A stretch of 63,870 nucleotides of DNA, filler included, from Chrysochromulina tobinii (lineage: Eukaryota), in NCBI GenBank assembly GCA_001275005.1. It is 8 parts of 8 records of this genome, joined end to end, with 100 filler letters (N's around TTAATTAATTAA, not from the genome) between each part and the next. Parts side by side here need not be neighbours in the genome. Positions count along the whole stretch, not along the records: positions 1 to 11,409 come from JWZX01000927.1; 7 more parts are not named here. The stretch is one strand, 5' to 3'. The position numbers were made by a program, and so were the translations under genes. Within the stretch, counting starts at the first letter, position 1. The number at the start of each line of letters is the position of its first letter. Below the pieces are notes generated by a model. The model was not told where the DNA came from, did not search any database, and worked only from the letters and a program-made list of their open reading frames with translations. This document shows positions 1,747-63,870 of the stretch, piece by piece.

Positions 1747-3608
1747 AGTCGGAGATGTCAGCTCCGGTCGGAGCCAAGTCCGTTCAACAGACGACCTCGG
1801 GGGAGATGGAGTCCAAAAGTCCCAAGCGATGGAACATGGCAGCGGCGGCGGCCGCGGCCGGCTCGACGATGTACATCAACGCGACGGGCGCGCTGGCAAT
1901 CGAGCCGACGGCCTACCAGAACGCGCTGAAGGAGCTTCCTGTCACGCTGCCGGTAGCTCTGATGGTCTCTGATTGCATGCTGATTGCATCCCTCATCAGT
2001 GCAGCTCGCGTCGCTCCTTCTCGCCGATCGGCAGGTACCCGCCTCCACCGCGGCCGCCATCTGCGCGTCACTCGCCCCCGTCCTTGATGCGCTCATGCGA
2101 GGTGTCGATGTCAAGTCAGTGGACTTCCAGGCTGCGAAGAATGCGTACAACAGCTGGCTGGAGAGCAGCTGGCTCGATCCGCGGGGGGACACCCCCGCCG
2201 GCGCCGAGGGCGCCGTGCCGAGCGCCATGCCTACGAGCGCCGTGGCGAGCGCCTCGACGCCAGCTGGCAGTGGGACTGGGGGCGGCGGTCTCCTCGGCCC
2301 ACCCTCTGGCCCTCCGCCTTGCTTGCCGCGCCCGCCGATACGAAAGCCCAAACCGATCAACGGCTGGTCGATTGAGCAGTACGGCCTCTCGGGCTTCTCT
2401 GGCTTGTATGCGCAGGGCCTGCATGTGCCACGCGTCGCGACGATTCGCCAGGTCATGCTCTGATGGTCTCTGATTGCATGCTGATTGCCTCCCTCATTAG
2501 GTCATGCTCTGGCTCTTGATGGTCTCTGATTGCATGCTGATTGCCTCCCTCATCAGGTCATGCTCTGGCTCCTGCAGTCGGCGCCCGGCATGCCCACCGA
2601 CGGCCCGCTCTCCTTTGCGGACTTGGGCGCGGGCACGTGCGCGGCCTGCGTGGGAGCGCGCTTCGCGCTGCGTGATCACGTGGGCGGAGAGCATGCATTC
2701 AAGGTGTGATCACTAATGACCACTGATGACCACTGATGACCACTGATGACCATTGATGACCAGCATGCATTCAAGGTGTGGCCGATTGACCTGGCCATCA
2801 AGCCTCCTCCTCCGCCCGTGCTTGATGACCACTGATGACCACTAATGACCACTGATGACCACTGATAACCACTGATGACCATTGATGACTTTGCATGCAG
2901 GTGTGGCCGATCGACGTGGCTTCCTCCTCCGCCCGCTTCCGTGAAGCTTTCACAGCGATGATCGAGGTGGGCACCGTCCATCGTCGAGACTCACCCATTA
3001 TGCTCAGTGGCAGTCATACAAAGGCCGCTCTGCTGCCCGGGCAGCACCCTTCACAGTATCTGACCGAGGAGGTGGAGGGCGTCGCCCCCCTTGTCACCTC
3101 GCTCCTTCGGCAGCTTTCCGAGCGCAACGAGCGGCAGCCCCACGTGATTATCGCCTCCTTCTCGCTCCACTACCTTCGTAAGGGCGAGCGGAAGGACTTC
3201 TACGAGACACTAGCCAAGGCCGTCACGCGCCCGCTGCTGTTGCTGATCCTAAAAGGAGTCGATGCGCCCGAGACCAAGGGTAAGTGCGAGCCGATGGTGC
3301 CAGCGCACATCCCGTCGATCATCCTCGGGCTTCATTATTACATTGGGCGCAGCCCGAAGCCACGTGTCGCAGAGGCGCAGCTCGCCCTCATCCTCCCAGC
3401 GGCGCAGGCGCACGCTGGGGCCCAGTCCTTCGCACCGCCGGCCGCGGGCCAGAAAGATGCCGTGCCCGCATACGAGCGCTCGGATCCCGACAGCTGGGTG
3501 CTCAGCACGTTTGCCGCGGCCCAGAGGCACAGCCGACGGCATGGGATCTTCACCGGGGTGACGGTGCTCGCCGAGGAGAAACTCGCCGCAAGGGACCTGG
3601 GGTCGTAG
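1087..3608 (+). CDS. Multi-exon protein of unknown function; the last exon may encode a methyltransferase-like fold
   Basis: Successive long + strand ORFs are separated by GT..AG repeat-filled introns at about 1953-1999, 2452-2556 and 2705-2900. The last exon contains IIASFSLHYL. Start and exon joins are approximate. Confidence 0.55.
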
Positions 3609-3719
3609 TCGAGAGAGAGAGAGAGAGATGCCAATCGGGATGACCAATTTTTAGCTGATGGGTTTCTTTGGGCCTTATACTCACACAGTATGACGTGACT
3701 GTGTACAGTACGCCGCGTA

Positions 3720-3782
3720 CGGTAAAAAGACACCGGGGGAGCCGGGACACGTCGTACCGGCTCCCCCGGTGTCTTTTTACCG
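3720..3782. repeat. Perfect 26-bp inverted repeat with an 11-nt loop
   Basis: cggtaaaaagacaccgggggagccgg (3720-3745) and its exact reverse complement (3757-3782). Confidence 0.95.
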
Positions 3783-3880
3783 GTACCGCTGTAGTACCGG
3801 TAGGACAAACGAAACGCCCAAAAACCGATCGGTCGGGGTCTCTTGTGGCCTCGCCGCTGCTGGCGCGGGTTACGGGCCAT

Positions 3881-4987
3881 ATGCCCAATGCTTTACTGCT
3901 CAAGATGCCGGCTTGGGTCACAGCTCCCGTGCGCGAGCTGACCATGGAAGATGTGACGATGATCACAGACGGACCGAAGCCAGTGAAATCTACCACAGCC
4001 TTCGGTCCGGGCTTGGTGGCAGCGACCGTCCGGGAGCCCGCACACTTCACGATCGAGGTACCCTTGAATCCGGGCATGGATCCGGCAGATGATCGAGGTC
4101 CCTTGCAGCTGCCGTCAGACGACAATCTCTTCGTGACAATTCGTGGTGTCTCGCGTGTCCATCCGCACCTCACACCAAGGCCTATTGATTATGACCAAGA
4201 CACACTGGTGCGCACGTATGATGTTGAGTGGCGACCCGTTCTCTCTGGACACTACCAGATCGTAATCTTCCACGGTAGCCGTCAGCTGGAAGGCAGCCCG
4301 TTCGAAGTCGTGGCGGCGACTCCTCAACCGTGTCCAATGCAATGCCGGCTCCACGGCGATGCCTTGTGCCAAGCAGTCGCCCACAAGACCGAGACGTTCA
4401 GCATTGCGTATCGCGACAAGCTCGGCATCACGACGCACGCAACAGAGCTCGATGTGTTCGTCGAACCTGTGCAATCTGGCAGCCCACGGGGCCGTATCAC
4501 ACGTTGCCGCAAGATTCGCGTCAAGGTCGGCGGGCGACCGATCAGCGTCCGGGCTGAGCCCGACCTAGACTCCGAGGAGATCGGCGAGCTGCTCCCCGGC
4601 GCAATCATCACCATCGTCGAGGAGCGGATCGGGCGCGGCGGCAATGTGGAAGCGTGTATCGCGTTGGACTTTATGGAAAAGGTGGATCGGAACGGCAAGC
4701 CAATCATCTCGAGCCCGAGAAAGCCTGGCTTGCCGACCACGGATGCTAAGATCTTGAGCTTTCGGTCGACGCCGTCGCTTTCGGAGCGCCGCGCCGGACC
4801 TCCCGTTCTGCCTCTAGCATCCGCTCCTGCAGCTACAGTGCCCACGAGCACGCTCGGCTCGATCCCAGAGGACGATGCCGTTGAAGGTGGCCGACAACTG
4901 GCGGCTCCGAACAAACTCGGAGCTCGGCCGCTCTCCTCGATTCCCGAGGCGAGAGCAGCGGCAGCTTCATGGACCTCAGCGAGCGGT

Positions 4988-5024
<37 letters not shown>

Positions 5025-7663
5025 CGGCGATTGGCGCCCCTCTCAGCAAGCCCGAGCAGCAACAGCGCTTACGAGCAGCAGCAGCGCCGAGCGGCAGCAG
5101 CAGCGCGAGCGGTGCCCCGAGCTGCGGCAAGCTTGCAGCGAACGGCACCGTGCCCGGAGGGCAGGGCGGGAGCCAGGTGGCTCCAAGTTCGCCGAACTCA
5201 CACGTCAAGGTCCAGAAAAAGTTTGGGATGAAGCTGTCGGTGGCCGCCGCCGCTCAGCAGCAGGTAGCCGGAGCGCAGCAACAGTCCTCTCGCCGTTCGA
5301 GTCGTTCCAGTGGCACGGCACGGAGCGGTGGCAAACGGAGCTCGAGGAAGCTCGACTGGAGTGCGCAGCAAGCGGCGCGGACCGTGGGCTGGGCCACCAT
5401 CGTCAAGGATGGGACCAAGCTTGTCACCTCGCGGATGCGCTTGAATGTCGAGATGCGCCAGCAGTACCAGCAGCAGTGGGCACGGCGCTTAGCCACCGTC
5501 AAGTCCGCTGAGGGCTTGAAGAAGACCATGGGGGACGGTACGGCCAGCTCGAAGAGCCGGAGAAATGAAGCGATTACCGATCATTCTGTAATGCGCTCCA
5601 TCACTCTCGAGCTCGAATCCGCCAAAGCTGTGGCGAACACGGCCGCCTTTGCGTATGGTGGCATCTACCCGGGGGTGTTGCATTCGCACGGCAAGCTGCC
5701 CGACTCGCATCGAGTCAGTTACTCGATTGGGGTGGCTGGAGTGTACCTGCTCCACGTGCGCTTGCGCCAGCAAGGCGCGGCGCTTCCTAGCTCGCCGTTC
5801 ATGCTGACTGTGCGGCCCGGAGAGGCGCACGCGCTGTCCACGAAGCTACCCGCAGTGCTGCACGGCGAGGTGGGCGGGCGGTGCTCGTACACGATCTCCA
5901 CCGCGGATCAGGGTGGCAACCCGTGCCTCGAGGGGGGGGCAAAGCTCTCGTGTACCTGCGAATCGGAGGATGATCTCTGGCTTCGCACGGGCGGCTCGAG
6001 TAGCGACAATGGCAAGCTCAGCGCCAAGTCCACCGACCACGGGAATGGCAAGTACACCATCGTGTGGCACGGCGAGAGGACCGGCACCTTTCTCGTCTCC
6101 GTCACGATCGGCGGGCTGCACGTGGTCGGATCCCCCGTGTTCCTCAAGCTGGCCTCCTCCATTCCTGACCTGACTAAGTGCCTCACGGATGTGCAGCGCT
6201 CGATTCGTGCGATCAAGGGTCAGCTCACGATGTTTCGCATTTGCTTCCGAGATGTCTACGGAAACTCGCCCAACTGCAGCAGCGCCTTTCGCAGCACCCT
6301 CAAAGCGGGGCTGGCGATCGCCAATCCGGGCGTTAAGGTGCCTACCGCGAGGACTGAGTACGACTTCGAGGGCTCGTGGGTGGATGAGGAGAGCGACGAC
6401 GGCACCCAGATCGCATGGTACCAGATTGCGTTCACGCCGATGACAGCGGGCTCCTACTCGATGCATGCATGGGTCGAAAGCAACGCCCCTGTAACCAATC
6501 AGGTGCCTGGGGTGGTGCGCAACTACATTGAAGGTTCGCCATATATCCTGGACGTCCACGCGGATGCTGCCAACGTCCAAAGCGGAGTCCGAGAAGTGAT
6601 CGACGTGTCGGGGATCATGCCAGGCGACTACAAGATCTCTCGCGACGTTTTTGAGGAGACGACGAAGAGATGGGGCGACTGCACCATCGATGCGTTTGCC
6701 AGCGTGGCAACGGCCACGCTGCCCCGATTCTGGACTGAAACGCCGAAGTTGGGCGCGGAGGGCACCGATGCGTTGAAGCAGGAGTGGCGGTACGGAGAGC
6801 GCGTGTGGGCGCATCCGCCTCTCCACCTGCTCGACGCTCTGGCGGCTTTCTTGGTACAACCGGACCGAGGCGCCGAGGTGATCGTGTGCGCACCATTCCG
6901 ACCCAACGCGGACTGGTTCTTCAAGATCAAGAAGCTCTGTGATGACTCGACCAAGTACATGGCAGGCCGGCTGAGTAAGGTAGCCAACGACGCTCCGTCG
7001 CGCGTGCACGAGTGGCCCATTATTCTCTTTCGAATTCCAGGCCGCAATCCTGGTGCAGGAGGGCCAACGCGCCCTCTAGCTCAGCCGCAGCCTCAGTCGC
7101 AGCCGCAAGTTCTGCAGCTTCCAATCCAACCTGGTGCAGGGAAGCCACTGCTTCCGCCTTCGTCTCTGCCGCAGCCTCTGCCGGAAATTGCGGCGGTGGC
7201 CAAGAGCCCTCGATTCGCACTTTCGATGGTCAACATTGCCAAGATCATCCGGGAGCATCCTCACCTCAGGCCGCAGATTAAGGCGATCGTGTCGCGCAAA
7301 GATCTTGACCAGAAGCAAAGCATCCTCGAGATTCAACAGCTGCTTGTCACTGCGTTCGGCCCAGCGGCTGCGGAGCGGACGGACGCTCAAGCCGCCGAGG
7401 CGCCCGTTGGCGAGACGGCCCTCGTCACGGGCGCGAGTGTGCTCGGCGCTCTTTCACGGGGCGCGCCGAGGGCACCTGCGGCGGCCGTCTTGCCGGTGCA
7501 AGACCCGTTGAGCGCGTACAACGTGGCGGACGCCATAGCGCTCGGACCTCCAGCAGAAATCAGCATGGTAGCAGAGAGCGGTCTGCGACGCTCACGAGTA
7601 CAAGTACAAGTGAGCCTCAAGGGCCGGGCAGCCACCTCGAGCTTCGCGAGCACATGTAAGTAA
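3881..7663 (+). CDS. Filamin/ABP280-repeat protein with an SH3b-like insert and a C-terminal DIRS/phage-type N6-adenine DNA methyltransferase-like domain
   Basis: Filamin motifs AFGPGL..A, F.I, G.Y.I.V and GSPF.V occur about four times. SH3b-like VRAEPDLDSEEIGEL..GWA. MTase-like WG..TIDAFAS..LPRF..GAEGTDALKQEW..WAHPP at about 6620-6950. Start codon uncertain (3881 or 3905). Confidence 0.8.
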
Positions 7664-8890
7664 GTAAGTAAGTAACACACGCCAACATGCAGCGTACACG
7701 TGGCGAGGGGGATACCCAGGCATACAGAGCGTGTAACACTGACCGCGTGTACGGTGTTCAGCAGTCGAGTGTTGTTGCTGATGAAAGTCATCAGTCAACG
7801 CTCGCCCGCGGCTCAAGAGCGGAGGTGTCAACAATAGGGGGCGGGGCGCACGGTCGCGTAAAATTCACTCCTCCCCGTTTTTCCCACAAGGGAGTCGGCC
7901 CAGTGGCTCGGCCCTCGGCGTGGGTGCCCCCATTCACAATGAGAAAAGAGGGGCTGCGTTCTTGTAGATCGCTGCGAACAAGATGTAGGATCGGCGCGAT
8001 CCCGCGACGCGACTCGCGAGGATCCCCGCGCGACTCACTTACCCGCCGCGACTCACTTTGTGTGTCACACCTTCCTACAGCGATCTGTACAGCTTGGCGC
8101 CAAGGCTGTACGTCTCTTTCGCGCTCTTGTCGCTGCCGCGCCGCCACGCGACGAGTGGCCCGTCGACTCGCCGGTCCGGCCTGTGCGGCACGCGGACCGA
8201 AGAGCTCGGCTTCGAGCCTCCTCGCATCGGCGCGCAGATCCGCGGAGAGGTACGAGACGCTTACCCATGACTCTTCCCACATGTCTCCATCTGAATCCTC
8301 CCCCTCCCATTCGACCAGAACGTCTAATGGGCGACCACGCCGCCCGTCATGTCGTCGCATAGCCATGATGCGCCGTACTGCCCAGCGCCCGCCATCGTCG
8401 GCCTCCCGACCTGCGACCACGGGTGCCATTGCTACGCGCTGCCTAGCGTCCCGCCTACTTCGTGATACCTCTTGCCTCCTCCGTTTGCTTCGCTGAGGAT
8501 CCACACGCGGCTCGATCTCAATGTGCACAACGTCCCCCACCTCCTCCGCGGGTTGACTGCTAAGGGTATGGTGCTTCTCGACTTTTTCCGGACCGAAGAG
8601 GAGCGCAGCAGGCCCCTGTCAGTTCCCCTGTCCGACCCGCACAAAGTGCCCCATCCGGAGATTGCAGATGCCCAGTGTCCTCCATTCGCCCGCGCTCAGA
8701 GTCTGTTTGACCTCTAAGATCGCCCGGAGACCATCGTGTACGAGCTCAAACCGCTCCTCCACCTCCTCCGTGAAAATCTGCCAACGCAGGCCGTTGGCCA
8801 GGCAGGCCCACCGTCGCATGCCTTCCCGTTGCACAGCTAGCGCCCTATTGCGCGAAAGAGCACATGTACCGCGAGCACCACAAGCTATAT
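7657..8890 (-). mobile_element. Degenerate 3' end of a chromodomain-bearing retroelement with a (TTAC)n tail
   Basis: Chromodomain WAVRRIMAMRR..LDVLVEWEG..WEESWVSVSYL. ORFs 8619-8834 and 7791-8540 are in the same frame, separated by one premature TGA. The element ends in a (TTAC)n tail at 7657-7674. Confidence 0.6.
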
Positions 8891-9098
8891 CCTACCTATA
8901 TCTTAGGCGAGATCCGGACCGGTAGCCCTAATGACGAAACCCTCTGGTTGCCTAATAAAGAGATATAGTAAGGGTACTGTGGTGTCGTGTCGTCCTCTAA
9001 GTGACTTGTGTAAAGTGTCTGCCGCTGCGAAAAGTCTAACGAGTGAAACGACTCGACTCCGCGGACCGCGCGACCTAACTGTTCGCGTTGTCTGAACG

Positions 9099-9154
9099 TA
9101 TGGTTGTCTGTTGTTTTAATGTTTATGTATAGACTTGACTTAACTTGACTTGAC
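9099..9154 (+). repeat. Copy 1 of a short dispersed element (core cgtatggttgtctgttgt plus (ACTTG)n tail)
   Basis: The same core occurs at 22722-22822 (-), 31750-31845 (+) and 47420-47494 (-). Confidence 0.8.
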
Positions 9155-9339
9155 TCAAACAGCGGCGCTCATGCTCCAGGTGTGTGTGTGTGAATTTGAA
9201 ACAGGACCACACAGTACAGCGGCGCTCATGCAGGCGCGTCCCCGGGGGGGCGTGGGGGCGAGCTTACATGAGGTCATGACTGTGTGATGATTTCGTCAAG
9301 AAGCTCCGAACCATGAACCATCTGGTTCCATCCGGAAAA

Positions 9340-9810
9340 TCACACTCTCTGTGTTATCGCTTGAGCATGCACACGACCTTGCGACGTTTGTAAGGCTAAC
9401 CCTAACCGCCGATACCGTCTCATGTGCGCCATACAGACTGTACTGAACTGACCCGACATTACGTACGGAACAGGGAAACCGTGTAACCTGTACTTGACTG
9501 CTTGTTGAATGAAGTATGCAGCTTGCCAATATGCTCTATGTCGAAGTACTCTCCATTTCCTTTGAATGTCTACCAGAGCCTTAAGTGGGCCCCACAACTT
9601 TGGCCTTCCGAAGCCCTTAAAGATTGCCTGGAGCGAGAGTTTGGCTAAGTCGGGCACTTCTCCTACGTCCTCAGTACGTCGCACACGACGTAGAGCACGC
9701 TCACTGGGTGCAGCTGACCCCGCTCCAAGCTGTCGCTGTTGAAACTTGGGATTGAGCTCAAATGTGAAAGTTGAGACAAAAGACGAAAGTTTGGGCCTTC
9801 GAGGGTCCAT
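9340..9810 (-). CDS. Hypothetical ORF packed directly downstream of the YqaJ gene, possibly viral-derived
   Basis: 156-aa ORF starting 3 nt after the YqaJ stop, intronless, lower GC. No recognisable domain. Confidence 0.3.
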   Translation of the reverse strand: MDPRRPKLSSFVSTFTFELNPKFQQRQLGAGSAAPSERALRRVRRTEDVGEVPDLAKLSLQAIFKGFGRPKLWGPLKALVDIQRKWRVLRHRAYWQAAYFIQQAVKYRLHGFPVPYVMSGQFSTVCMAHMRRYRRLGLALQTSQGRVHAQAITQRV

Positions 9811-9813
9811 CCA

Positions 9814-10380
9814 TCATTCCAAATCTGGAAAATCCTCTAGAGTCGGCGGCAGTGCACGCGTTTCGACGCGGTCCCAGAACCCAGTGTCCATGTGCGCGTT
9901 CCGCGACTCCTCGACCATCTCGCGGATCATCTCCTTCTCGCCCTTTGCGAACTTCGGCGGTCCGTCGCCGTCGCACATCGCTCGGTAGAACTGAGCGTAG
10001 TGCGTGCTCGTGAGAACGCCGTGCAGATCACGGTCGCGCGTCACGCGGATGACCTTGTACGCTCCGGGCGTCCATGAGATGAAGTCGCACCACTCGCGGT
10101 CCGCGCACTCGAGGCACAGGTTGATCTGCAGGTAGTAATACAGCGGGATCGTCTGGTGCGGCGTCTTGCTCCAGTAGGGGCACTTGGCCTCGACGATGCC
10201 CTCGGTGCCAATCAGCCCGTCCGGCGAGCCCGCGAGCCAGTCTGCGTGCTTGTGCACGTACAGGCCGGTCGGCTCGACGAGGTTGCCCGTGTGCGCGCTG
10301 TAGGCGACGAGCGCGTTGGGCTCGTTCGCCGTGCCCCCCTTGCCGTGCCCCAGCGCGTCGCGTCGTTGCCCTCAAACGTG
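9814..10380 (-). pseudogene. YqaJ/lambda-exonuclease-like viral recombinase, 5'-truncated and frameshifted
   Basis: Motifs FEGNDATRWGT-NEP, WLAGSPDGLI, VEAKCPY, IPLYYYLQI and EWCDFISW. A 14-nt tandem duplication (ggggcacggc repeated, about 10328-10352) breaks the frame. Confidence 0.85.
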
Positions 10381-10462
10381 TCCGTGCCGGGTGTTGGCGG
10401 TGTCGAAGGCGTTGACGGCGTTGAGGGTGTTGAGCCAGAGATCATTGTGCACGACCGCGACG

Positions 10463-11322
10463 AGCTGCTTCTCGCGAAGCTTGTGTGTGGTGCTCGTGGT
10501 GGGGGTGGTGCGCAGTGACTCTGGGCTCGGCAGCTCGAGGGCGTCCGGCAGGTACGGATGGTAGTCGCTCTCGACGGAGCCGTCGACGCAGTGGTACTCG
10601 CGCGAGTCGAGCTCGGCGTGGCGCGCACGCACGCTATCGAGCGTGGAGGCGAGGGCGGCGCAGGCGGAGACGGCGGCGTTGGTAAGGTGGTGGCTGTCCG
10701 AGCAGGTAGCCCAACCTCGACCTCGTCGACCACATCCGCGACTTTGGCAAGGCGCGCAACGCCACCCAGCTGCGCTCGCACCTCATGCGCGTCATCGCCA
10801 GCGCCATCCCGGCACACTGGATGCGCATGATGATGCCACACGTCACCGCCGCCGCCGCCACCGCCGTGGACGCGCGCATCGAGGAATCCTTTGCGTCACT
10901 CGCTAACCTGGCGCACAGCCCGCCCGAGCGTCGCGCCCTGTCGCGCTCGGTCGCCAGCCTTCGCATCCGCGAGGGCGGCTTCGAGCTGGCGGCATTCAGC
11001 GCCACCCGCACCGCCCTCTTCCTCGCCGCCTACGTGAAGTCGCGACCTACGATCGCGCGCATCTTCCCGCCGTCGGCTACCTGCTCCGACAGCCACCACC
11101 TCGCCAACGCCGCCGTTGCCGCCTGCGCCGCCCTCTCCTCCACGCTCGATAGCGTGCGCGCGCGCCACGCCGTGCTCGACTCGCGCGAGTACCACTGCGT
11201 CGACGGCTCCGTCGAGAGCGACTACCACCCGTACCTGCCCGACGCCCTCGAGCTGCCGAGCCCAGAGTCACTACGCACCGCCCCCACCACGAGCACCACA
11301 CCCAAGCTTCGCGAGAAGCAGC
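10463..11322. repeat. ~250-bp imperfect inverted duplication (10463-10711 vs 11075-11322)
   Basis: Both arms encode ..RARHA(E/V)LDSREYHCVDGSVESDYHPYLPDALELPSPESLRT.. on opposite strands, with scattered mismatches. Confidence 0.9.
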
Positions 11323-12364
11323 GTCGCGCACGGCCACCACCTCCTTCTTCACGCACCACCTGCGACTCATCTCGCTCGCCGCCGTGATCGGCGCGGCGCT
11401 CCCCGTCGCNNNNNNNNNNNNNNNNNNNNNNNNNNNNNNNNNNNNNNNNNNNNTTAATTAATTAANNNNNNNNNNNNNNNNNNNNNNNNNNNNNNNNNNN
11501 NNNNNNNNNCCACTGATGCCGCCTGATGACCACTGATGCCGCCTCTCCATAGCGTCTGATGGCCTCCCTGAGTCGCCATGCTTTCTCGTCTGGAAAACGA
11601 GCGCGTTCAAAAGCGAACGCGGTTCGGGCGTTGAATCCAAATTTGGACACACACACACACACACACACGCGCGAAAAAAGGCTAAAGGGTCCGCCGGACC
11701 AAAACCTATCGGGTCGCGAATTGCAACGACTGCGGCCCCGGCTCGGAATTCCGCCCGGCTCCGGGCCGACGGCACGCGCACCATTGTGCATCGTCACAAG
11801 TGGAGTACTGGTAAGGTGAAAGCGGTTTGTACCTTGTAGGAACCCTTCATGTGTCTGAGTGACAACTGAGTCTAGAGAACTAATGTGTCTAAAGTAAGAA
11901 ACGAGAAACGACAAAAGGGGGTGGGGAAGCCAGCGGTAGCACTCTAAACATTTTCGCTGGTGAATTTTCGAAGTGTGAAACAGTAGTGTGAACAGAGTTT
12001 GGTTCGGACCCAAAAGCGGAGCACACAACTCATTGCCTAAACGAGCACTCTTTTCAGGCAAGTGGCCCTGCCAGTGCCTGTTCCAAACATCGCCGCTTGG
12101 CCGCTAGGATGGGGGATCCAATTGCGTTCCCGAGCCACTCCAGCTGCCCGTCGGCCACGCTCGAAGGCTGTCCCAAGCCGTCGCATCCGCGGAGACACTT
12201 CGGTTGTCCTTGCGCGTGGCAAAGCACGCGGCCTGTGCGATTCCTTGCTGGATGCTGCTGGCCTCTGCGCGCGTCGCATGGCACGCGGCCTGCGATCACG
12301 AAAAGCTAACACAATGCAGCATGGCTGACCATCGCGTGTTGCGTCCCGCTCGCTTGCAGATCAA

Positions 12365-12760
12365 ATGATTGCCGCTGCTGTCATCGCGCTTCAAGTCCTC
12401 GGCGTGCCGCAGGAGCATGTTGTCGATGCCCTTCGCCGCCCCGGAGAGCCCATCCACCAGGAGAACCTTGGCTCGCTCGGCCTGCCCGTCGATATTGAGT
12501 GGGTCTACGGCCCTCACCCTGATCTCAACCACTGCTACTACATCAAGTGCAAGAAGGGCGGCGGCCTGCACGAGCCGGGCCAGAAGTGCCAGGGTCAGAA
12601 GAAGGTGTCCCACTTGCCCCACGAGAACTGCATCGATGCGAAGTTCCCCCACTGCTACGATCTCGTGTGCAAGCTCGGCAACGGCCTCAATAAGGCCGGC
12701 CAGCAGTGCTCCCCCGACACTGACCACACTTCGCCCAACGGCGGCAAGTGCCGCAAGTAA
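12365..12760 (+). CDS. Small putatively secreted cysteine-rich protein with two internal repeats
   Basis: Hydrophobic N-terminus MIAAAVIALQVLG. Repeats HCYYIKCKKGGGLHEPGQKC and HCYDLVCKLGNGLNKAGQQC. Strong GC3 codon bias. Confidence 0.7.
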   Translation: MIAAAVIALQVLGVPQEHVVDALRRPGEPIHQENLGSLGLPVDIEWVYGPHPDLNHCYYIKCKKGGGLHEPGQKCQGQKKVSHLPHENCIDAKFPHCYDLVCKLGNGLNKAGQQCSPDTDHTSPNGGKCRK

Positions 12761-35777: not shown

Positions 35778-35877
35778 NNNNNNNNNNNNNNNNNNNNNNN
35801 NNNNNNNNNNNNNNNNNNNNNTTAATTAATTAANNNNNNNNNNNNNNNNNNNNNNNNNNNNNNNNNNNNNNNNNNNN

Positions 35878-38800
35878 GGCAGCAGCGGCGCCGGCGCCGG
35901 CGCCAGCGCCAGCGCCGCTGCCGCACCGGCCGCTGCACCGCCCGCTGGAGCCGAGCCTCTCCCACCGACGCCCCGGCAGCTCGCCAAGCTGAGTGAAGAT
36001 CAGTTGGTGCACCTGTGGGGTCTGGTGACGGCTGAGGTGCCCCCCGATGAGCGCCACGTGTACCGCAACACGGCCATCGAGGCACTGTGCGAACTTCTCG
36101 AGGAGCCGACTTCGAAGCTCGCGTATCTCGACCTGAGTGCCACAGCGCTCTGCGGCGTCGATGCGACGGGGAAACCACTGCTCGGGTGCGAGTATACGTC
36201 CGAAGCAGTGGAGCGGCTCTGCTTCGCGTTGCGCTCCGAGCACTGTCGATTGACCACTCTTAAGCTGACCAAGTGCCAGATGCGCACGGCGGAGGCGGCG
36301 GCGCTCGCGCTGGCCGTCAAAGCTTGCTCCGCCCACGGGCCAATGGTGCAGACGCTCGTGCTGGAGGGTTCGTCACTACCCGTGCCGCAGCTGCTCGGCC
36401 TGCGTGAGCTCTCGCAGGGGCTGCACAAGCGCTTCTCGTCCGAGTGCTCCAAATTGCATGGGTCGGAGGTGACGCTCATCGCACAGCTCCTCTCCGAGAA
36501 CACGAGCCTAGAGCTGCTCGATCTCAACTCGAGTGGCCTCAGCGGCGGGCTCTCCGAGATTGCGAGCGCCATCGCCGCTCGCGCGATGCCGCTCACCGCA
36601 CTACACCTCGGCGAGAATGGGCTTTCGGCCGCGCACACGATCGAGCTCGTGCACGCGCTGCGCACAGGCGCGCCACAATTGACGGACCTCGACTTATCGG
36701 GCAACCCGCTCTGCGGTGTCGAAGAGGGCGGCAAGGATGAGTACTCGACCGAAGCGATCGAGACGCTCTGCAGCTGGATCGCCGATGGCGCGGCGCTGCT
36801 CTCGCTCTCGCTCGTCGACGTGGCCCTCTGCGGACTCGCGCGCGATGGCAACGGCTCTTACCAGTCGCGGGGCATTGCGGTGCTCAACGAGACGCTCTCC
36901 TCCGGCCGCGCCGCCCAGAAGCATATCTCGCTCAAGTCGCTCAATATCTCCGGCTGCAAGATTCGCGAAGACGACGCGCACCATCTGGGCAAGGGGCTCT
37001 CGCGCAACCGGACGCTCGAGAAACTCGTGCTCGACAAGACGCCTCTCATGGTGCAGCAGCTCCTGCGTGGCGAGCGGCTCAGCTTGCATTCAGTCGACTT
37101 CAGCGAGGTGGACGCGACACTGATGGCGCAGCTGCTGCAGCAAGATCTGGCGCTCACATGCATCGACCTGGGCGGCGCCAAGCCGTTACCCAAGGAGATC
37201 AAGGTGCTCTCCGACGCGTTTGCACGGCTGCATGGGCGCGCCTCGGTCCGCGAGCTCTCGGTGAGCGGCCGTTGTCTCGGGCTCGAGGCCCTGCACGTGG
37301 CTGCATGCAAGTGCTCACCACGGCGCCCCCACCCTTTCCCCACAGGTGAGCGGCCGTTGTCTCGGGCTCGAGGGTTCGGCCTCGCTCCTCGACGCGCTCA
37401 AGGATTGCCCACTCGAGGTGCTCGACTTGACCGGCAACGAGATCTGCGGCATCAAGGCCACTGGCACCGACCCGTTCAACCCGTTCGTGCTCAAGATGGT
37501 GTGCGCACTCATCATCAAGGAGGGGTGCGCGCTGCGCCGGTTACGCCTCAAGGGCAACCATATGATCGGCAACGACGTGTACACCAGCGAGGCGGTGTTC
37601 CTTTTCTCGGAGGCGCTGCGATCGCCGCGCTGTCGGCTCGAGGAGCTCCAGCTCGGTCTTGTCAACAAGAGCAGCGGCCTGCGCGAGGAGGACGGCATGG
37701 TGCTCGGCACGGCGGTGCAGGCATGCGCGAGCCTCATCAAGCTCTCGGTCACGCGCGCCGAGCTGCCGATGACCGAGCTGCTACACGGCTCAATCTCACT
37801 CGATCTCGAGGGCAAGGGACTCGGGCGCACCGAGATGGGCATCGCCGCACAGATCTTGCGCTCGAACGGCACGCTGCGCACGCTCAAGCTCACCGACAAC
37901 TGCATGGGACCCCACGGCCTACTCGCTCTCGCCGACGCGGTGCGCCACGCCCGCCCCCCACTCGAAGAAGTCTTCATGGGCAATCTGGGCATCTCCTCTT
38001 GCGAGGAGATCTATGTCTTCTTGCGTGCGCTGCGCGAGGGCGGCGCGCCGCTGCGCGTTCTCGACATCCACGGCAACCCGCTGTGCGTCGCCGAGGGCGG
38101 CGCCACCGCCAGCGCGCCGCCGCCGGGCAGCAGCGGCACCCAGCACGGTGGCGCGCCCGACGAGCAGCGCTGCTTGCGAGCCCTTGCCGAGGTATGCGAC
38201 TGGATCACTTCTCCGGGCAATCAGCTGAGCGTGCTCAACCTGCGCGAGGTGATGAAGGAGGAGCTGCCCGCGGAGATCCACCAAGCCGCGCTCACCATGC
38301 TCTGCGCCGCGGTCGGGCATGAGCACTGCGTGCTGCGTGAGCTCAATGTGCACGGCTTTGGCTTCAAGCCCGCATCGGTCACGCTGCTTGCCGAGGCGCT
38401 CCTCCGATGCCCTACGCCGCTCGAGACCCTGGTGCTCGCACGCTGGGCGGTGCCTGTTCGCCGACTCGGGGTCGAGGCTGGACGTCTCACGTTTGGGGGC
38501 GCCAACGGCTGCCAGGAGGATGTGGTGCTTGTCTCACACCTGCTCGGCTCCGACATGCGCCGCGCCTCGCTCCTTTCCCACTCGTCGAGCCCGAACGCGC
38601 CCTCGACGAGCCCTCTTGGCGCCATCCTGCCACTCGTCGGCGCCCCCGCCGCGCCGTCCTTCACAGCGATGGTGCCCAACACAGCGCGCAGGCCCAGAGC
38701 CAATCCGGAGTTGCCCTTCTCGGTGCCCAGCGTCGACGCGGCTGGCAGGGCCGATCGTGCCGCGTTCAAAGGCAGTGGTGGTGACGGCGGCGGTGGCGGC

Positions 38801-41800
38801 GGCGGCGGCAGCAGCAGCGACGATGCGCTCGAGGGCGGCGGTGGCGCGGGCGGCGCCGCGAGCGACGGCATTGTGCGCTGCCTCGACCTCTCTGAGATCG
38901 GAGCCAATGTTGGGAGCGCGGGGCTGTCCGCGATAGCGAGTGTCATCCGCAAGGGGCAGCTGCCGCACCTGTGCAGCGTGATCCTCAAGGACACCTCGTT
39001 GAAGAAGGCGCAGCTCGAGCAGCTGCTGCGGGCGCTGCTCGACGGGGGCTGCGCTGTGGAGGACCTCGAGCTCTGTGGAACTGAGCTCTGCCTCTCGGCG
39101 CCGGGGCGTTTCTGCCTGGATGCTCTCCGGATCGTCTGTGCACTCATCACGCGCGCAGGGAGCACGCTGCGTCGGCTCGGGCTGCGCGGCACGCACCTGT
39201 GCGGCCTGCCACCCGGGAGCGATGTGGGCGACAAGTACAATCTGGAGGGCATCGCCCTCTTGTGTGCGGCGCTGTGCTCGGAACACTGCATGCTCGAGGA
39301 GCTCGACGTCTCCGACAATGGTCTCCGGGCGGAGCGCGAGCCCCAACCGCCCTCGCGCCTGCCCGCTCGCCTGTACGGGCTCACGCGCCAGGACGGGCCG
39401 CAGCTAAGCGCTCTTGTACCTGCGGTGCGCGCGCGAGTGCTGCGCGAGCTGCCGTACCCAGCCATTTTCGCCCGTGCGAGCGCGCGAGGCTTTGAACTGC
39501 CTCCGCTCGAGACGGTGGCGAACCTCGAGGCAAGTGCCTTCCTCGAGCTGTGGGGACAGGCCAACGAGGCCGAGCGACTCGCCGGGAGCCCAGCCAGCGC
39601 CGCGCCCGCCCGCGCGGGGCCGCCAACCTGCGCCGTCCCGGGAGCACCTGGCGCAGGAAACGATGAGGTGGGCCACCTGCAGAGTCACAGCAGCGGCAGC
39701 AGCAGGAGCAGCAGCGTGCTGGCAGAAGGGATCGTGGTGCCGTTGGCCACGCTGGGCTCGGCCGTGGCCGCCGCCGCCTCTGCCGCCGCCGCCGCCGCCG
39801 CAGCCGCGATGAGCCGCGAGCATGCGCCGAGCACGCCATCGCCCCCGATCCCGTCGATGCCCTCGGCGCCCTCGCCCGTTCTGATGAACTTCACCGAGGG
39901 CAGCGGTGTGAATGTGAATGTGAACTTTGCCGAGGGCAGCGGCAGCGTGGGCACGGCGAGCGCACGCGTACGTGTGCCATCAACGGAAATGGGCGCGCAC
40001 ACGGCGCACTATCCCGAGTTCTCAGCCGCCCACACGTCACTCATGGCCAAGCACCTGACACGCGACGCGTATTTATCCATGTGCGAGGTGCGCAGCGGGA
40101 TGGCTGCCTTCACACTCGATCAATCGATCTCGCCCGGCCGGCTGCGCCCGCACGCGGTCATTGGCGCCGTTGCCGCCGACGTCGACTGCTACGACCGTTT
40201 CGTCGCACTTTTCGACAAGATCATCGAGGAGTGGCATTTGCTTCCGGGCTCTCGGCCGGGCAAGCTCGCGCACAACTCGGAGATCGACGCGAACAAACTC
40301 GAGCTCAACGCCGAGCTCAATGCCGAGCTCAACGCCTTCTTGAATGCCGAGCTCAACGCTGCGGGCAGTGCCGCGGGCAGAAGCAGCAGCAGCAGCGTCG
40401 ACGACGGGGAAGGTAGCGAAGGCGGCGGATCGGCGAAGGTTCCAATTGTGACCGCAATTAAGGCTCCAATTGTGACCGTGAGCAGCGGCAGCGCCGAGGC
40501 GAGTGGCGGCGGCGCCGGTCGGGCGGGGTCCCTCCTCGAGGGGGTGCTTGTGCGCGTGGCCGTGAGCCGCAACCTCGCCGAGCATGCATTCACACCGGCC
40601 ATGTCGAGTGAAGACTTTGCGGAGGTCGAGAGGGTGCTCCTTATCGCACTGCGTGCTCTGCCTCAGTGTGAAGGCGGCGCGGGCACGTACACGCCCTTCA
40701 GCAGCCTCGACGAGGCCGCGATGGCGCAGCTGCATGCTGAGGGTCTGCTCGTCGAGCCGGTGGACCCGATGGTCGCCGCGAGCCGAGACGCGGAGAGGCA
40801 TCGCGGCCTATTCCGTACTCCACGCGGCGAACTCGCCGCGTGGATCAACGGCCCCGATCACCTTCAGCTCCTAGCCGTGCAACGAGTGGGTGTGGGCGTG
40901 GACGGCGCAGGTGCCGCCGCCGCCACCGCAGCCGCCGCCTCCCAGTCCCTCGTGCGGACCGTGTTTGAGCTGGTGCACAGCGCACTCGCCTCTGTGGAGA
41001 AGACGATTCGCGAGTCGAACAAGACGTTCGCGCTGCATCGGCGGCTCGGGTACGTGGGCTCGTGCCCGTCCGTGCTCGGTACAGCGCAGCAGGTGGCCAT
41101 CCGACTGCCGTTGCCGCGGCTCGCACAGCTCCCGCCAGGCTCCCTCGAGGAGGTCGCGAGCGAGTTCTCATTGCGCGCGTCGCGCGTCGTGCCGGGCACA
41201 TTCCCGCCCAACGTGGGCCTGCCGCGGGGCGACGCCGACGGCGGCGAGGGGGGCGCCGGGCGCGAGAACTCGGTCGCGAAGCTTCGGGGAAGGTTCCGAG
41301 CACCATCGAGACGGATGCAGTTCGATGGTCGCTCCGATCTCCTCCAATCTGAGCCGATCTCCTCCAATCTGCGGATGCAGCTCGATGGTCGCTCCGGCCG
41401 GGAAGAGCCGTTGGCGCCGCTCTCCGACACGTCGGCGACCAGCACCGCCACCAGCGCTGCTGCCGCCGCCAGCGCTACTGTCGCCGCCAGCGCCGCTGTC
41501 GCCACCAGCGCCGCCGTCGCCGCCAGCGCCGCTCCCACCGCCGCGCCTGCAGCCGGCCCCGAGTTGTGGGAGTTGAGCAACCGCCCATGCATCGGGCGGA
41601 CGGAGGTGCAGCTCGCTCAGCTGGTCTTCGACAGCGCCGCGCTGCTGATGGCCGTGGATCGCCGAATCGGCGCGGGGGAGACGCTGCACGCGGCGATGAC
41701 GCCGCCGCCGCCACCCGAATCCGCCTCGATGCAGCTCGCGCAAGCAGTGCACCGCGGGCGGCCGCACGCGAGGCTGCGCCTGCTCACGCTCTCATCGACG

Positions 41801-44800
41801 CCGCTGCCCGTGCTCGACTGGGCGGGGCGCGCGACGCGACTCTCGCTTGCGGGGCTGCGCGTGTACGACCGTGACGCGGTGCTGCTCTCTGAGCTGCTCG
41901 CACTCAACACGGTGCTCGGCTCGCTGATGACCTCTGATTGCCTCCCTCATCAGGTGCTCGGCTCGCTGATGACCTCTGATCGCCTCCCTCATCAGGTGCT
42001 CGGCTCGCTCGACCTCTCGCAGTGTCGCATGACCGAGGCGGGCACGCTCGCAATCGCTCGCGCGCTGAGCACCTCGATGCCACGTGGCCTGACCGAGTTA
42101 CGCCTGCCGGACAACCGGCTACGCGTCTCGGGCGCGCACGCACTGCTCGACGCGCTCGACGCGGCGCGTTGCCGCCTCGAGTGCCTCGACCTCTCCGCCA
42201 ACGAGCTGTGCGGCGGCACGGTAGCCGAGGATCATTCGTTTGGGCTGCTCAAGGGGTCGGCCGCTCGCCTCTCCGAGCACGGGCAGCTCTGCCGGCTCGA
42301 GTCTGATGGACTCTGCTCCGCTGGGCCGCGCATGGAGCCCTTCTCGGGATGCTACCGCATTGAGTTCGAAGTGCTCCAGGCGACCGACGGCGATGGCGCG
42401 TACGTTGGCGTCATCAAGCCTGACGCGAACAAGTCGTCGTACCCGGGCTCGGATGACAAGGGCGTCGGCTGGCGTGCCAAAGGTGACGTGCGCCACCTAC
42501 ACAACGCCGTAGACATGGGGGGCGCCATCGCGGGCTGGGGGCAAGGTGACAGGGTGGGGCTCATGCTTGACACACACACGTGCGAGCTCACGTTCCTCAA
42601 GAATGGCAAAGCCTTCGAGCAGCGGTACACGGTCTCAATGGACGGTGGCATGTACTTTGCCGTCGGGCGCTACTACGGCTCCTACGTCGTGCGCTGCCTC
42701 TACGTGCACCAGCAGGGCGGCAACGAGGACATGGACTACTCGGCCCTCGAGCGGCTGTGTACGTTCGTGCACGCGCCGGGCAATCGGATGCGCGAGCTGC
42801 GCGTGGCGAGCAACCAGCTCATCGGCGTCTCCAAGTTCCATGGCGGTAGGCGCAACGAGCGAGGGCTGCATCGGCTCATTGCCGCTTTTGGGAGCGAGGC
42901 ATGCGCGCTCACGCATCTCGATGTGAGCGGCAACGGCTTCTCAGCCGAGGACGCGGCCGCTATGCTCGCGGTCGCCATGCGACCGTCCGCGTCCATCCTG
43001 CTGCTCAAGGTGCACCTGTGGCTTGTACCTGTCAAGCAGCTCGCCGCCGATACGGCGCTCGACCTGCGCGGTCAGGGGATGTCGGACGAGGACGCGGCGC
43101 TCCTCGCGCGGCTGCTCGAGAGCCGCTCGCAGCTGACGCGGCTCGACCTGCACGACAACCGTCTGGGCACCAGCGGAGTGGCCGCCCTCGCCAGGGCGAT
43201 CGCCGCCTCTGGAACGCCCTTGGAGTCCCTCGTCCTCTCCGCGAATCGGCTGGGCGCGAGCGCCGCCGCGGCCCTCGTCGACGGACTCGCGGCCATCCAG
43301 CCGCCCACGCTGACGGCGCTCGACTTGTCGGACAACCCACTGACCGAGGGCGCCGCCGCATACGACACACGCGCGATCGGCGCCCTCGAAGCGCTGCTGG
43401 TCGCGCCGGGATGTGTGCTCACGACCCTGGGCCTTTCTGCCACGCAGCTGTGCGGGCGCGATGGCGACACGAGCTACGTGGGCGAGGGCATCGCGCTGCT
43501 CGCGTCCGCGCTGCGTCGCTCGCGTGCGCCGCTCGCCTCGCTCCGTCTCGCAGGCAACCTGATGCGCGACGCCGAGGCCACGCTGCTCTGCACAGCTCTC
43601 TCGGAGCGAGAGGGCGCGGGCTGCGCGCGCCTGTCGCTCGACCTCTCGACCAACTCGCTCTCGTCCGCGCGACTCGCCGAGGTTGGCGGGCTGTGCACTC
43701 TCGTGGCCGCCTTCCAGAAGCCGCTGTGTGAACGCGTCTTCGTGGGCGTGGACAAGTGCGTGTACAGCGCCGTCGCGAGCGAGCATGCCATCTACATGGC
43801 GCACGGCTCGGGACCCATCATTAAGGTGTCGCTCACTGAATGGAAGGAGCTCGGCCGCTTCGAAGGGCATGCCGACGACACCAACTGCCTCGCGCTGCAC
43901 CGTGACCACCTTCTGTCTGGCTCGGATGACTACACGGTCAAGCTATGGCGCACGACCACTTCCGCTGCGGGCGAGGGCTGCTGTGTCGTCACGCTGACCG
44001 GCCACGAGGCACGCGTCTGGTGCGTGCTCGCCACGGACGAGTTCATCTACTCGTGCTCGGCTGACAAGACCATCCTCGTCTGGTCGATGGCCGATGCGCA
44101 GCGCGGCATCGCGACCCTCAAGGGACGGCTCACCGCGCACACGGACGTGGTGTACGCGGTGCGCCTCGCCTTTGGCTCTCTCTTCTCGTCGAGCGCCGAC
44201 AAGACCATCAAGCGATACGCGCTCGACACGCATCGGGTCACGATCTCATGGGAGGCGCACGCGCACTCGATTACATGCCTCGCGGCGGCTGAGCGGCTGC
44301 AGTTGCTCTGCTCGGGCGCCGAGGACGGGCGCATCTGCCTCTGGCATGTAGGCGCGACGACGGCCACTTGCGCCGGCACGCTGAGCGTACGCCCCCACGG
44401 ATCCCGCGCCGCCTCGTCGAACTTGGCTATCTACGCTCTCGCAGTGAGCCCGACGGGCACCGTGCTCTTCTCGGGCGGTGCAGACTACCGCGTGCACATG
44501 TTTGACTTGACGGAGCGCACACTGCTCCACACGCTGACCGGCCACGCTAGTACCGTGCGAGCGCTCTGCTTCACCGCCGCGGGCGATAAGCTGTGCAGCT
44601 CCGGCGGCGATTTCAACCTCCTCGTGTGGGCCCTACACGAAGATCAGAGAGCCGAGGAGGAGCTGCGCGTCAGGGAGGAGGCTGCCACCGCCGTCGCCGT
44701 GGCCGCTGCCGGCGGAGGCGTCGGAGGCGCAGGCCTCCACATATCTCGAGCGGGAGGCGCAGGCGGAGCGGGAGCGGATGGAGTCAGCGCGTCGAGCAAC

Positions 44801-44857
44801 AGTCGAGCAGCCGAGGAGGAGGAGGAGGAGGAGGAGGAGGAGGAGAAGCCGAAATAG
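35878..44857 (+). CDS. Giant LRR - phosphagen-kinase-like - SPRY - LRR - WD40 protein (5'-incomplete)
   Basis: ORF 36004-37260 splices in phase (intron 37261-37345) to ORF 37346-44857. Many RI-type LRRs. ATP:guanido phosphotransferase-like region at about 40000-41670, SPRY at about 42340-42700, WD40 repeats at about 43760-44640. Confidence 0.85.
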
Positions 44858-62444: not shown

Positions 62445-63460
62445 ACGACGTAGAGACGCTCCTGAGCACGTTGCTCGTCTGCCGGCGTGCGACCGCGCGC
62501 AGGTGCGCGGCGTCGAAGCGCTGCTCGCGCCGCGCGCCAGCGCTCGGCCGACGGCCGCACGTCCACAGGCAGCATGCTCTCGGCGGCGTCCATATCCTCT
62601 CGCAACAAGTGCAGCAGCGCTTCGCTGAAGCGTTGGGCGATGTTGGACGAGGGGCGCGCCCCAAAGCCGAGCCGCCGCTCGGAGACGAAGAAGAGACGCT
62701 CACCCGCCGAGCGCGGCGCGGTGATCTCGTCGGCGTGGATGAACACCACCCCGAATTTCCACCAGTCCTCTGATGCGATCGCGAGCTGGTTGAAATAGTC
62801 CTTCGCGTCGTCACCGAAGATGTAGAGGGGCTCTTCGAGGCGGCGGGCGGCGGCAAGCAGGATCGACAGGTCGCGCATGACCATCGACAGCGTGGGCTTG
62901 ATCTCTGGCGGCCGCCGAGAGGGCATGCCCCACTCGAGCGGGTCGGCAAGCTCGCGCTCCTGCATGTACTGGAGCCATGGCGGGTCGTGCCGGTGCTTGT
63001 ACCACGCAGGCATGTGGCGCACGCTCGCGGCCTCGTTGATCGACAGCGCGCGTAGACCGCTGCCATCAAGCGTAGGCCGCCTCGGCCCGCCGCATTCGGT
63101 GGTGCGCCGATAGCGGGTTTCTAATTTTCGCGCCGTCGCGCCCTGCCCGTTGAGGTAGATGGGCCAGAAGGGCAGGTGGTCGAAAAAGCGGTACCAGCCA
63201 AGCGTCTGCAGGCGATAGAGCTCGTTCCTGACCGAGGTGAAGCCTTTCGGCAACGAGATCAGATGAGGAACGAGGACAGCCTGGAGCTCGACGTCGGCTT
63301 CGAAGCGAATCCCCTCCAGCAGGTTCGCGAGGAGGTTCTGGTCGGGGTAGTTCGTAAGCCGCTTGCGCAAGAAGGGCAGGTTGAGGTGCGTCTCGATGGG
63401 CAGCGTGACGTCGAGGGGCTCGCTCGTCTACGACACGGCCAAGATCGCGAAGCACTACTC
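62445..63460 (-). mobile_element. Reverse transcriptase of a DIRS/tyrosine-recombinase-type retrotransposon (partial)
   Basis: RT motif A DDAKDYFNQL and motif B RLGFGARPSSNIAQRFS. Motif C YTDD is seen in the inverted copy. Confidence 0.75.
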
Positions 63461-63470
63461 GCTAGACGAC

Positions 63471-63870
63471 CACGCCGACGATATCACCGCGCCGCGCTCG
63501 GCGGGTGAGCGTCTCTTCTTCGTCTCCGAGCGGCGGCTCGGCTTTGGGGCGCGCCCCTCGTCCAACATCGCCCAACGCTTCAGCGAAGCGCTGCTACACT
63601 TGTTGCGAGAAGATATGGACGCCGCCGAGAGCATGCTGCCTGTGGACGTGCGGCCGTCGGCCGAGCGCTGGCGCACGGCGCGAGCAGCGCTTCGACGCCG
63701 CGCACCTGCGCACGGTCGCACGCCGGCAGACGAGCAACGTGCTCAGGAGCGTCTCTACGTCGTCCACATGTACACCGACGACACGACCCCATCATGGCCG
63801 TGGTCGGTGTAGATCGGGCCATTCGCCTGCTCCGCCTCTGGGCGCGCCTCACCGTCGAACTCGGCCTCAT
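63471..63870 (+). mobile_element. Second, inverted fragment of the same RT
   Basis: Near-identical to the reverse complement of 62445-62737 with several SNPs. Contains VHMYTDD. Confidence 0.75.

Follow-up and report, generated by a model that had tools for sequence, protein, structure and literature searches.

A filamin-repeat protein of Chrysochromulina tobinii ends in a methyltransferase-fold domain that is very probably of DIRS-type retrotransposon origin

The window analysed here, a stretch of 63,870 nucleotides of C. tobinii DNA that joins eight parts of the assembly GCA_001275005.1, contains on its plus strand an ORF of 1334 aa from stop to stop (3659-7663), in which the residues quoted by an earlier note on this DNA lie in frame. 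The features of the gene are collected in Table 1. Its 1260-aa product has the domain order Ig1, Ig2 (split), SH3b-like domain (split), Ig3, Ig4, methyltransferase (MT)-like domain and low-complexity tail. The repeats were recognized by Pfam (Filamin, E 7.6e-24) and had the Dictyostelium filamin rod as top Foldseek match (E 2.8e-11), while the bacterial-type SH3 family SH3_3 matched weakly and under its cut-off (E 2e-4). The alignments suggest a nested layout for 4316-5815, with Ig2 split by the SH3b-like domain and this domain itself split by a low-complexity insert of ~215 aa; the N-terminal half of Ig2 would then pair with 5648-5815, and the conserved GW strand is presumably the closing strand of the SH3b-like domain. 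This layout is kept in most long homologs (22-member alignment). As the earlier note had claimed, the MT-like segment directly follows the filamin repeats without interruption of the ORF; the location it gave (6620-6960) was correct, and the domain proved longer at both ends. Separately, a 29-nt inverted repeat (hairpin) lies at 3720-3782, 100 bases before the ATG, and recurs in many unrelated RNA contigs as a small dispersed repeat.

Table 1. Features of the filamin-MT gene and its 3' end, in coordinates of the window
Feature	Position	Strand	Details
Single-ORF gene	3881..7663	+	1260 aa from first ATG at 3881
Filamin-type Ig repeat 1	3992..4315	+	aa 38-145, boundaries approximate; Pfam Filamin / Ig_GEX2_N; median identity 31% (15 homologs)
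Ig repeat 2, N-terminal half	4316..4480	+	aa 146-200; alignments, median identity 47%
SH3b-like domain, first part	4502..4675	+	aa 208-265; Pfam SH3_3 below cut-off; SH3_3 match in 6/41 members; median identity 55%
Ser/Ala/Gln low-complexity insert	4718..5365	+	aa 280-495; median identity 16%; AGC repeats
Conserved GW strand	5378..5425	+	GW in 22/22 aligned proteins
Ig2 C-terminal half, then Ig3 and Ig4	5648..6565	+	aa 590-895; Pfam Filamin; AlphaFold beta-sandwiches
DIRS-type, PCIF1-like N6-adenine methyltransferase-fold domain	6608..7045	+	aa 910-1055, 146 aa; Pfam Dam, pLDDT, CAPAM match, trees
DAFAS motif	6689..6703	+	after strand 1, probably on the cofactor-pocket side; D937, F939, S941 invariant in 41/41 fused proteins
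Motif IV position	6812..6823	+	HPPL instead of (N/D/S)PP(Y/F/W)
~1.2-kb insertion	7648..8868	-	11-bp target-site duplication (7648-7658, 8858-8868), GTAA-repeat end, chromodomain fragment

Expression of the gene was apparent in six RNA runs, which contain 92-100% of sampled words from it. RNA cover began at 3837-3848 and ended at 7319-7381 in 4/4 runs, leaving 7382-7654 without cover in the runs examined, and the flanks of the gene held only short repeat pieces in the RNA runs whereas the DNA contigs continue. Gapless single contigs bridge the repeats and the MT domain in three of four runs (5042-7360, 5072-7381 and 5420-7357); in the fourth, X15, contigs break at 6586/6591, just ahead of the domain. 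Thus the MT segment is co-transcribed with the filamin repeats in so far as RNA contigs cross their junction, support that is good but not final because it consists of assembled contigs, perhaps from a single campaign.

Pfam scans detected no RT, RNase H or recombinase in ORF 3659-7663 or in 72 ORFs of the window (28 + 44), including no integrase match that would mark a tyrosine recombinase, and a donor-pol profile had no match on any of the six frames of the window, which bears out the earlier statement that none of these genes flanks the domain. A search of 3500-12500 for terminal inverted or split direct repeats bounding the gene returned only the 29-nt hairpin and an unrelated 248-nt inverted pair (10.5-11.3 kb). 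Membership of an element requires RT and RNase H upstream of the MT; here, filamin repeats precede the domain. GC3 is 0.76 in the MT domain and 0.79 in the adjacent repeats. The insertion at 7648-8868 takes the place of the final ~13 codons present in other alleles but leaves the MT domain untouched; it is polymorphic, since the gene end is uninterrupted in 8/9 same-cluster proteins shown. The wider window encodes a shikimate dehydrogenase that falls into one 90% cluster with a EukProt protein of Chrysochromulina parva, in line with a haptophyte of the Chrysochromulina type. Two further observations concern the wider window: a YqaJ-like viral recombinase domain (E 3e-10; 9817-10371, minus strand) adjoins the 248-nt inverted duplication (10464-11322), and a very long gene at 35830-44854 (plus strand) combines LRR, ATP:guanido phosphotransferase (phosphagen kinase), SPRY, LRR and WD40 in one 2530-aa frame, an unusual fusion.

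The earlier note had also reported a DIRS-like RT elsewhere in the window as evidence that the donor class exists in this genome. We could not confirm this for ORF 62447-63427 (minus strand), which contains RT-like motif text, has no Pfam match, reaches only E 0.39 against the donor pol in hhalign and has no match to the six-frame donor-pol profile at E<=0.5; it was rejected as donor evidence. The RT-like fragment (62447-63870, minus strand) is cut by an assembly gap and has a rearranged, inverted piece upstream. Stronger evidence of a donor comes from DNA run X1, from the same culture, which includes a 191-base contig (depth 152) that matches 6671-6733 and whose flanks translate to P0136, a near-clade RT-RNaseH-MT protein. 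A donor-type element is therefore present in the DNA of this culture.

The MT-like domain matched a methyltransferase fold. With an 85-sequence alignment AlphaFold gave a pLDDT of 97.6 and pTM of 0.91; in a model from a 9-sequence alignment including the repeats, linker pLDDT was under 50 and overall pTM 0.45. Foldseek ranked zebrafish and human CAPAM/PCIF1 first (E 2.8e-5, TM 0.69), and structural alignment to CAPAM (6IRZ/6IRY) gave Z 12.8 and rmsd 2.5-2.8 over 130-131 aligned residues at 15% identity, taking in the 146-aa core only, ahead of Erm38 (Z 11.0), KsgA (10.2), E. coli Dam (9.6) and T4 Dam (9.3). With the domain alone, an atlas search returned clusters without a name at 0.92, in one of which 14% of the members have Dam, and PCIF1_WW at 0.84, which we regard as a lead only; the repeat-plus-domain piece gave no usable match, and a PDB sequence search with the single domain or a profile gave none below E 0.2. 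Pfam Dam (PF05869) matched the isolated segment at E 6e-5 and 23.2 bits, below the gathering cut-off of 28.1, which some fused homologs exceed (P0095, 36.9; P0081, 32.8), and was matched at E<=0.01 in 30/41 fused proteins. The Dam-like label of the earlier note thus needs amending: the DIRS-type family stands, but among solved folds PCIF1/CAPAM is nearer than the Dam of phage or E. coli. Iyer et al. likewise assign DIRS1 MTs to the PCIF1 clade (PMC4738411).

Motif IV reads HPPL in frame, as had been noted. Among 47 labelled fused proteins, the first residue is His in 47/47, the fourth is never aromatic (0/47) and the canonical motif is absent (0/47). At the fourth position non-aromatic residues interchange freely (P 26%, I 19%, V 12%); one unlabelled fragment, P0215, reads HPPF. 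Retroelement rows have His in 27/55 and the canonical motif in 14/55. The earlier suggestion that HPPL hints at repurposing after capture did not survive, because 16/16 of the nearest retroelement MTs already read HPP. These alignments indicate instead that HPP was inherited from the donor lineage and that the change is older than the capture.

Ten residues (D916, Y917, D937, F939, S941, W969, W976, H978, P979 and P1005) are invariant in 41/41 fused proteins, and most of them probably lie on the cofactor side, pocket residues being assigned from motif position rather than residue-level superposition. R996 and E999 are fixed in the fused clade only, while a C-terminal stretch, L-x-x-V-A-x-D-A-P-x-R-x-x-x-W, is a donor-clade signature that the fused domain has retained. 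The net charge of 37 fused domains is not basic (median -2), and the linker from the last repeat is fixed at ~22 aa (median of 46 rows). Median identity to the window protein is 52% for the MT domain (20 homologs), as compared with 35% and 21% for the pair of repeats ahead of it; the linker has 16%, the best-kept half-repeat 71%; the MT domain is thus better conserved than the flanking repeat (52% vs 21%).

A HMMER search of 1.84 billion representatives yielded 1005 matches with E<=0.001, of which 54 reach E<=1e-30, a number of close matches that argues against chance resemblance of the domain. The best 150 of these 1005 matches, together with six from other homolog searches, were labelled by the type of sequence upstream of the MT domain, using for the RNase H-type a profile seeded on Pfam RT/RNase H positives. 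Of the 156 rows, 48 have a filamin scaffold (the window protein and two near-copies of it among them), 55 have RNase H-type and 5 TPR-type sequence, and 48 are fragments without context; fused rows need not be one per species and may include paralogs. A region search among long proteins found nine full-length filamin-plus-domain homologs with 49-99% identity over the region, and the fused domain is common to proteins down to 37% pairwise identity within the domain, so that the fusion is kept in diverged homologs, the conservation that the earlier note had asked about. A near-relative homolog search added four fragments, and a search for longer homologs only filamin-type proteins of 2362-5000 aa, which is uninformative on the MT domain because its profile contained repeat columns.

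Filamin/ABP280 repeats were detected in 36/41 members, a calponin-homology (CH) domain in none of the 41 scanned and an N-terminal signal-like peak in none of 22 members by a crude hydropathy scan. EF-hands are also carried by fused-family members P0080, P0126 and P0132, hinting at calcium regulation of the scaffold. A metagenome scan gave four loci, two identical to the window (L001, L002) and two MT-less relatives (L003, L004), the latter with an EF-hand and the same filamin repeats but stopping after Ig3, before repeat 4; the scaffold family therefore exists without the MT domain. L003 is without a stretch that L004 has, as expected of a spliced intron. DNA contigs L001, L002 and run X1 span the fusion, and in X1 another contig, of 9.4 kb, carries a paralogous piece of the scaffold (window 5723-5770) at depth 78, indicating a second scaffold copy, as compared with 84 for the gene's own contig and 152 for the donor-type element. 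Three freshwater DNA runs at 80% gave short pieces with five differences, none within the MT domain.

The MT domain is homologous to the MTs of RT-RNaseH-MT polyproteins, of which P0085 matches it at E 3.7e-43 and 57%. A tree of 99 rows (quick search only; 5 TPR rows, 45 fused and 49 from retroelements, with 9 short labelled and 48 unlabelled rows excluded) has the 45 fused rows as one side of a branch with an SH-aLRT of 99. A more careful 47-row tree (15 fused, 10 near, 14 far and 3 TPR rows, with 5 phage Dam as distant outgroup; LG+G4, no mixture model) recovered the fused clade (99/96) nested within a clade of His-motif retroelement MTs (100/100), with P0085 as its sister (95/80). AU tests, for groups picked after the first tree, rejected monophyly of all retroelement rows (p 0.0068) and, only marginally, a single origin of the filamin and TPR fusions (p 0.045), while monophyly of the 10 near donor rows was not rejected (p 0.06). 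The nearest donor elements are represented by their pol proteins, whose RT-RH-MT order fits DIRS1/PAT (PMC3266345); two farther retroelement rows carry an integrase SAM-like domain. The nesting of the fused clade inside retroelement MTs in a rooted tree supports the proposed origin from a DIRS-type pol MT.

Two other fusions emerged from the same searches. Five proteins (P0147, P0145, P0139, P0149 and P0152), of which P0147 has 1276 aa and a 9-member cluster, make up a host-like fusion in which TPR repeats are followed, at the C-terminal end, by this MT-like domain, its motif reading HAP; the TPR-fused rows form their own clade (99; 100/99) inside the His-motif group, and the trees point to this fusion as probably a second, independent capture. 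In P0186, a Dam domain with NPPF closes a polyprotein of Gypsy type that has RT, RNase H and integrase, as in the DAM-LTRs described in bioRxiv 10.64898/2026.05.21.726589.

The gene has the attributes of a domesticated transposon, being conserved, intact, free of mobility genes and within a host transcript (observed in RNA as contigs only). Fold, RNA contigs over the junction, conservation and the nested clade all support the earlier reading of a domesticated transposon methyltransferase, and we hold it highly probable that the MT-like domain is domesticated and of transposon origin. A single, ancient capture from a DIRS/PAT-type retrotransposon onto a pre-existing host scaffold is likely. Alternatively, the fusion may be an assembly chimera, stem from a neutral insertion of recent date or belong to a mobile element with host repeats that it took up. 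The locus does accept insertions, as the one at its 3' end attests, but this alternative is largely refuted, and hardly credible, given proteins with the fusion down to 37% pairwise domain identity, the DNA contigs that span it, the lack of RT/YR or terminal repeats around the gene and a GC3 resembling that of the adjacent repeats.

As to function, we lean towards the view that the domain, captured by the host long ago, serves as a binding module without catalysis: it would cap a cytoplasmic adaptor and bind a cofactor, another ligand or a protein. Given domestication, we consider a non-catalytic role fairly probable. The filamin/SH3 scaffold would act as the adaptor and the MT-like domain as its terminal cap, with a pocket that may still bind SAM or another ligand without methyl transfer. 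A pseudoenzyme that binds SAM/ligand or protein appears most likely because motif IV retains neither of its catalytic positions and there is no target-recognition domain; nor is the core basic. According to PMC8287941, mutation of the NPPF residues inactivates CAPAM, METTL16 and METTL5, all of which need an extra domain or partner, and CAPAM requires for its substrate a helical domain, which the window protein lacks. DIRS1 MTs were judged likely inactive (PMC4738411) and TE DAMs expressed in E. coli produced no 6mA (bioRxiv 10.64898/2026.05.21.726589). Against a non-catalytic role stands the motif IV His, which does not vary among the fused proteins or their 16 nearest retroelement MTs and could be a sign of chemistry instead of decay. 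In another reading with the same origin, the domain may be a SAM-dependent methyltransferase whose His-type motif IV is active and whose substrate, a protein side chain, small molecule or cytoplasmic RNA, is delivered by the Ig/SH3 scaffold. Such an enzyme would explain why H978, P979, D937, F939, S941, W969 and W976 are invariant in 41/41, why the predicted Rossmann core is intact and confidently folded and why the domain is conserved above the neighbouring repeats, and NPPY-type folds methylate protein amides and amines too. We nevertheless think it unlikely, as the fourth motif position is free among non-aromatic residues, a target-recognition domain is absent and we know of no characterised HPP enzyme.

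The captured domain may also serve as a transposon-control decoy that binds the pol protein or RNP of the donor family and tethers it to the cytoplasmic scaffold, in keeping with the retained donor-clade signatures, including the C-terminal stretch, the donor-clade element P0136 in same-culture DNA and the second capture, onto a TPR protein, from the same clade. However, steady conservation would suit a housekeeping contact more than an arms race, and the scaffold family also exists without the domain, making a decoy improbable. The domain could instead be a structural cap or spacer only, which stabilises or dimerises the last repeat and whose pocket binds nothing: filamins dimerise via their last domain, the linker to the last repeat is fixed and R996/E999 are clade-specific. 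This we find very improbable, for the invariant residues are pocket-side ones and the 9-sequence model has a low linker pLDDT and a low overall pTM. The binding-module reading therefore remains our preferred one.

Transposon domestication is known as a kind, including that of DIRS1 GAG (PMC4495291), and this MT domain is not known to have been domesticated before. PMC3266345 describes DIRS pol as RT-RH-MT and calls the MT function unknown. A survey from 2026, covering 10,030 eukaryotic DAM proteins, takes most orphans for degenerated TE remnants and makes no mention of filamin, TPR or domestication in the available main text (bioRxiv 10.64898/2026.05.21.726589). In the supplement of Iyer et al. 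(PMC4738411), 'filamin' does not occur, and among 30 of its 38 haptophyte mentions there is one Emiliania entry in the DIRS1-like list, of 232 aa with Dam only. A literature search, mostly without subscription papers, found no report of a filamin-MT or TPR-MT fusion. The DIRS MT domain has here given rise to a host family that is conserved, and probably to another as well; this is a counter-example to the remnant reading, and a transposon enzyme fold is here reused on a cytoplasmic-type scaffold instead of in chromatin. It is conceivable, though we rate it as rather unlikely, that the His-motif DIRS-type MT lineage was domesticated at least twice in haptophyte algae, on the filamin/SH3 scaffold and a TPR protein, because it brings to a cytoskeletal adaptor a portable activity, either the sensing of SAM or a SAM-dependent chemistry that is new. 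If so, these host proteins would be the first stable single-gene handle on the role of the DIRS MT domain. This small, selectively kept domain, predicted to be well folded, lets the question of DIRS MT function be tested.

Comparison with known systems places the protein between several families. Tandem filamin-type Ig repeats are shared with filamin and the rod of the Dictyostelium gelation factor but, unlike filamin actin cross-linkers, the protein has no CH actin-binding domain (41/41) and four repeats only, one of them split by a large insert. PCIF1/CAPAM has the same core fold and is the best structural match, whereas the window protein is without WW and helical domains and has HPPL rather than NPPF. 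Phage Dam proteins (PF05869) have alignable motifs and a sub-threshold Pfam match; in contrast, they retain NPPY and form the outgroup, and a direct phage match to the MT-like domain was not found. The MT of DIRS1/PAT pol, the Group-2 clade 1 DIRS1-like N6-MTase of Iyer et al. (PMC4738411) or 'eukaryotic DAM family' (bioRxiv 10.64898/2026.05.21.726589), belongs to the same sequence family and tree position, sharing the DxFA strand-1 motif, a degenerate motif IV and the terminal place in the polypeptide, whereas the window domain follows filamin-type repeats rather than RT-RNase H, lacks element context and is conserved over a diverged clade. Finally, in the LAP2alpha domains of TMPO and ZNF451, too, DIRS1-like sequence has joined host domains, through two independent captures (PMC4495291), but those derive from the first ORF (GAG) and occur in mammals, while here an MT domain is found in an alga.
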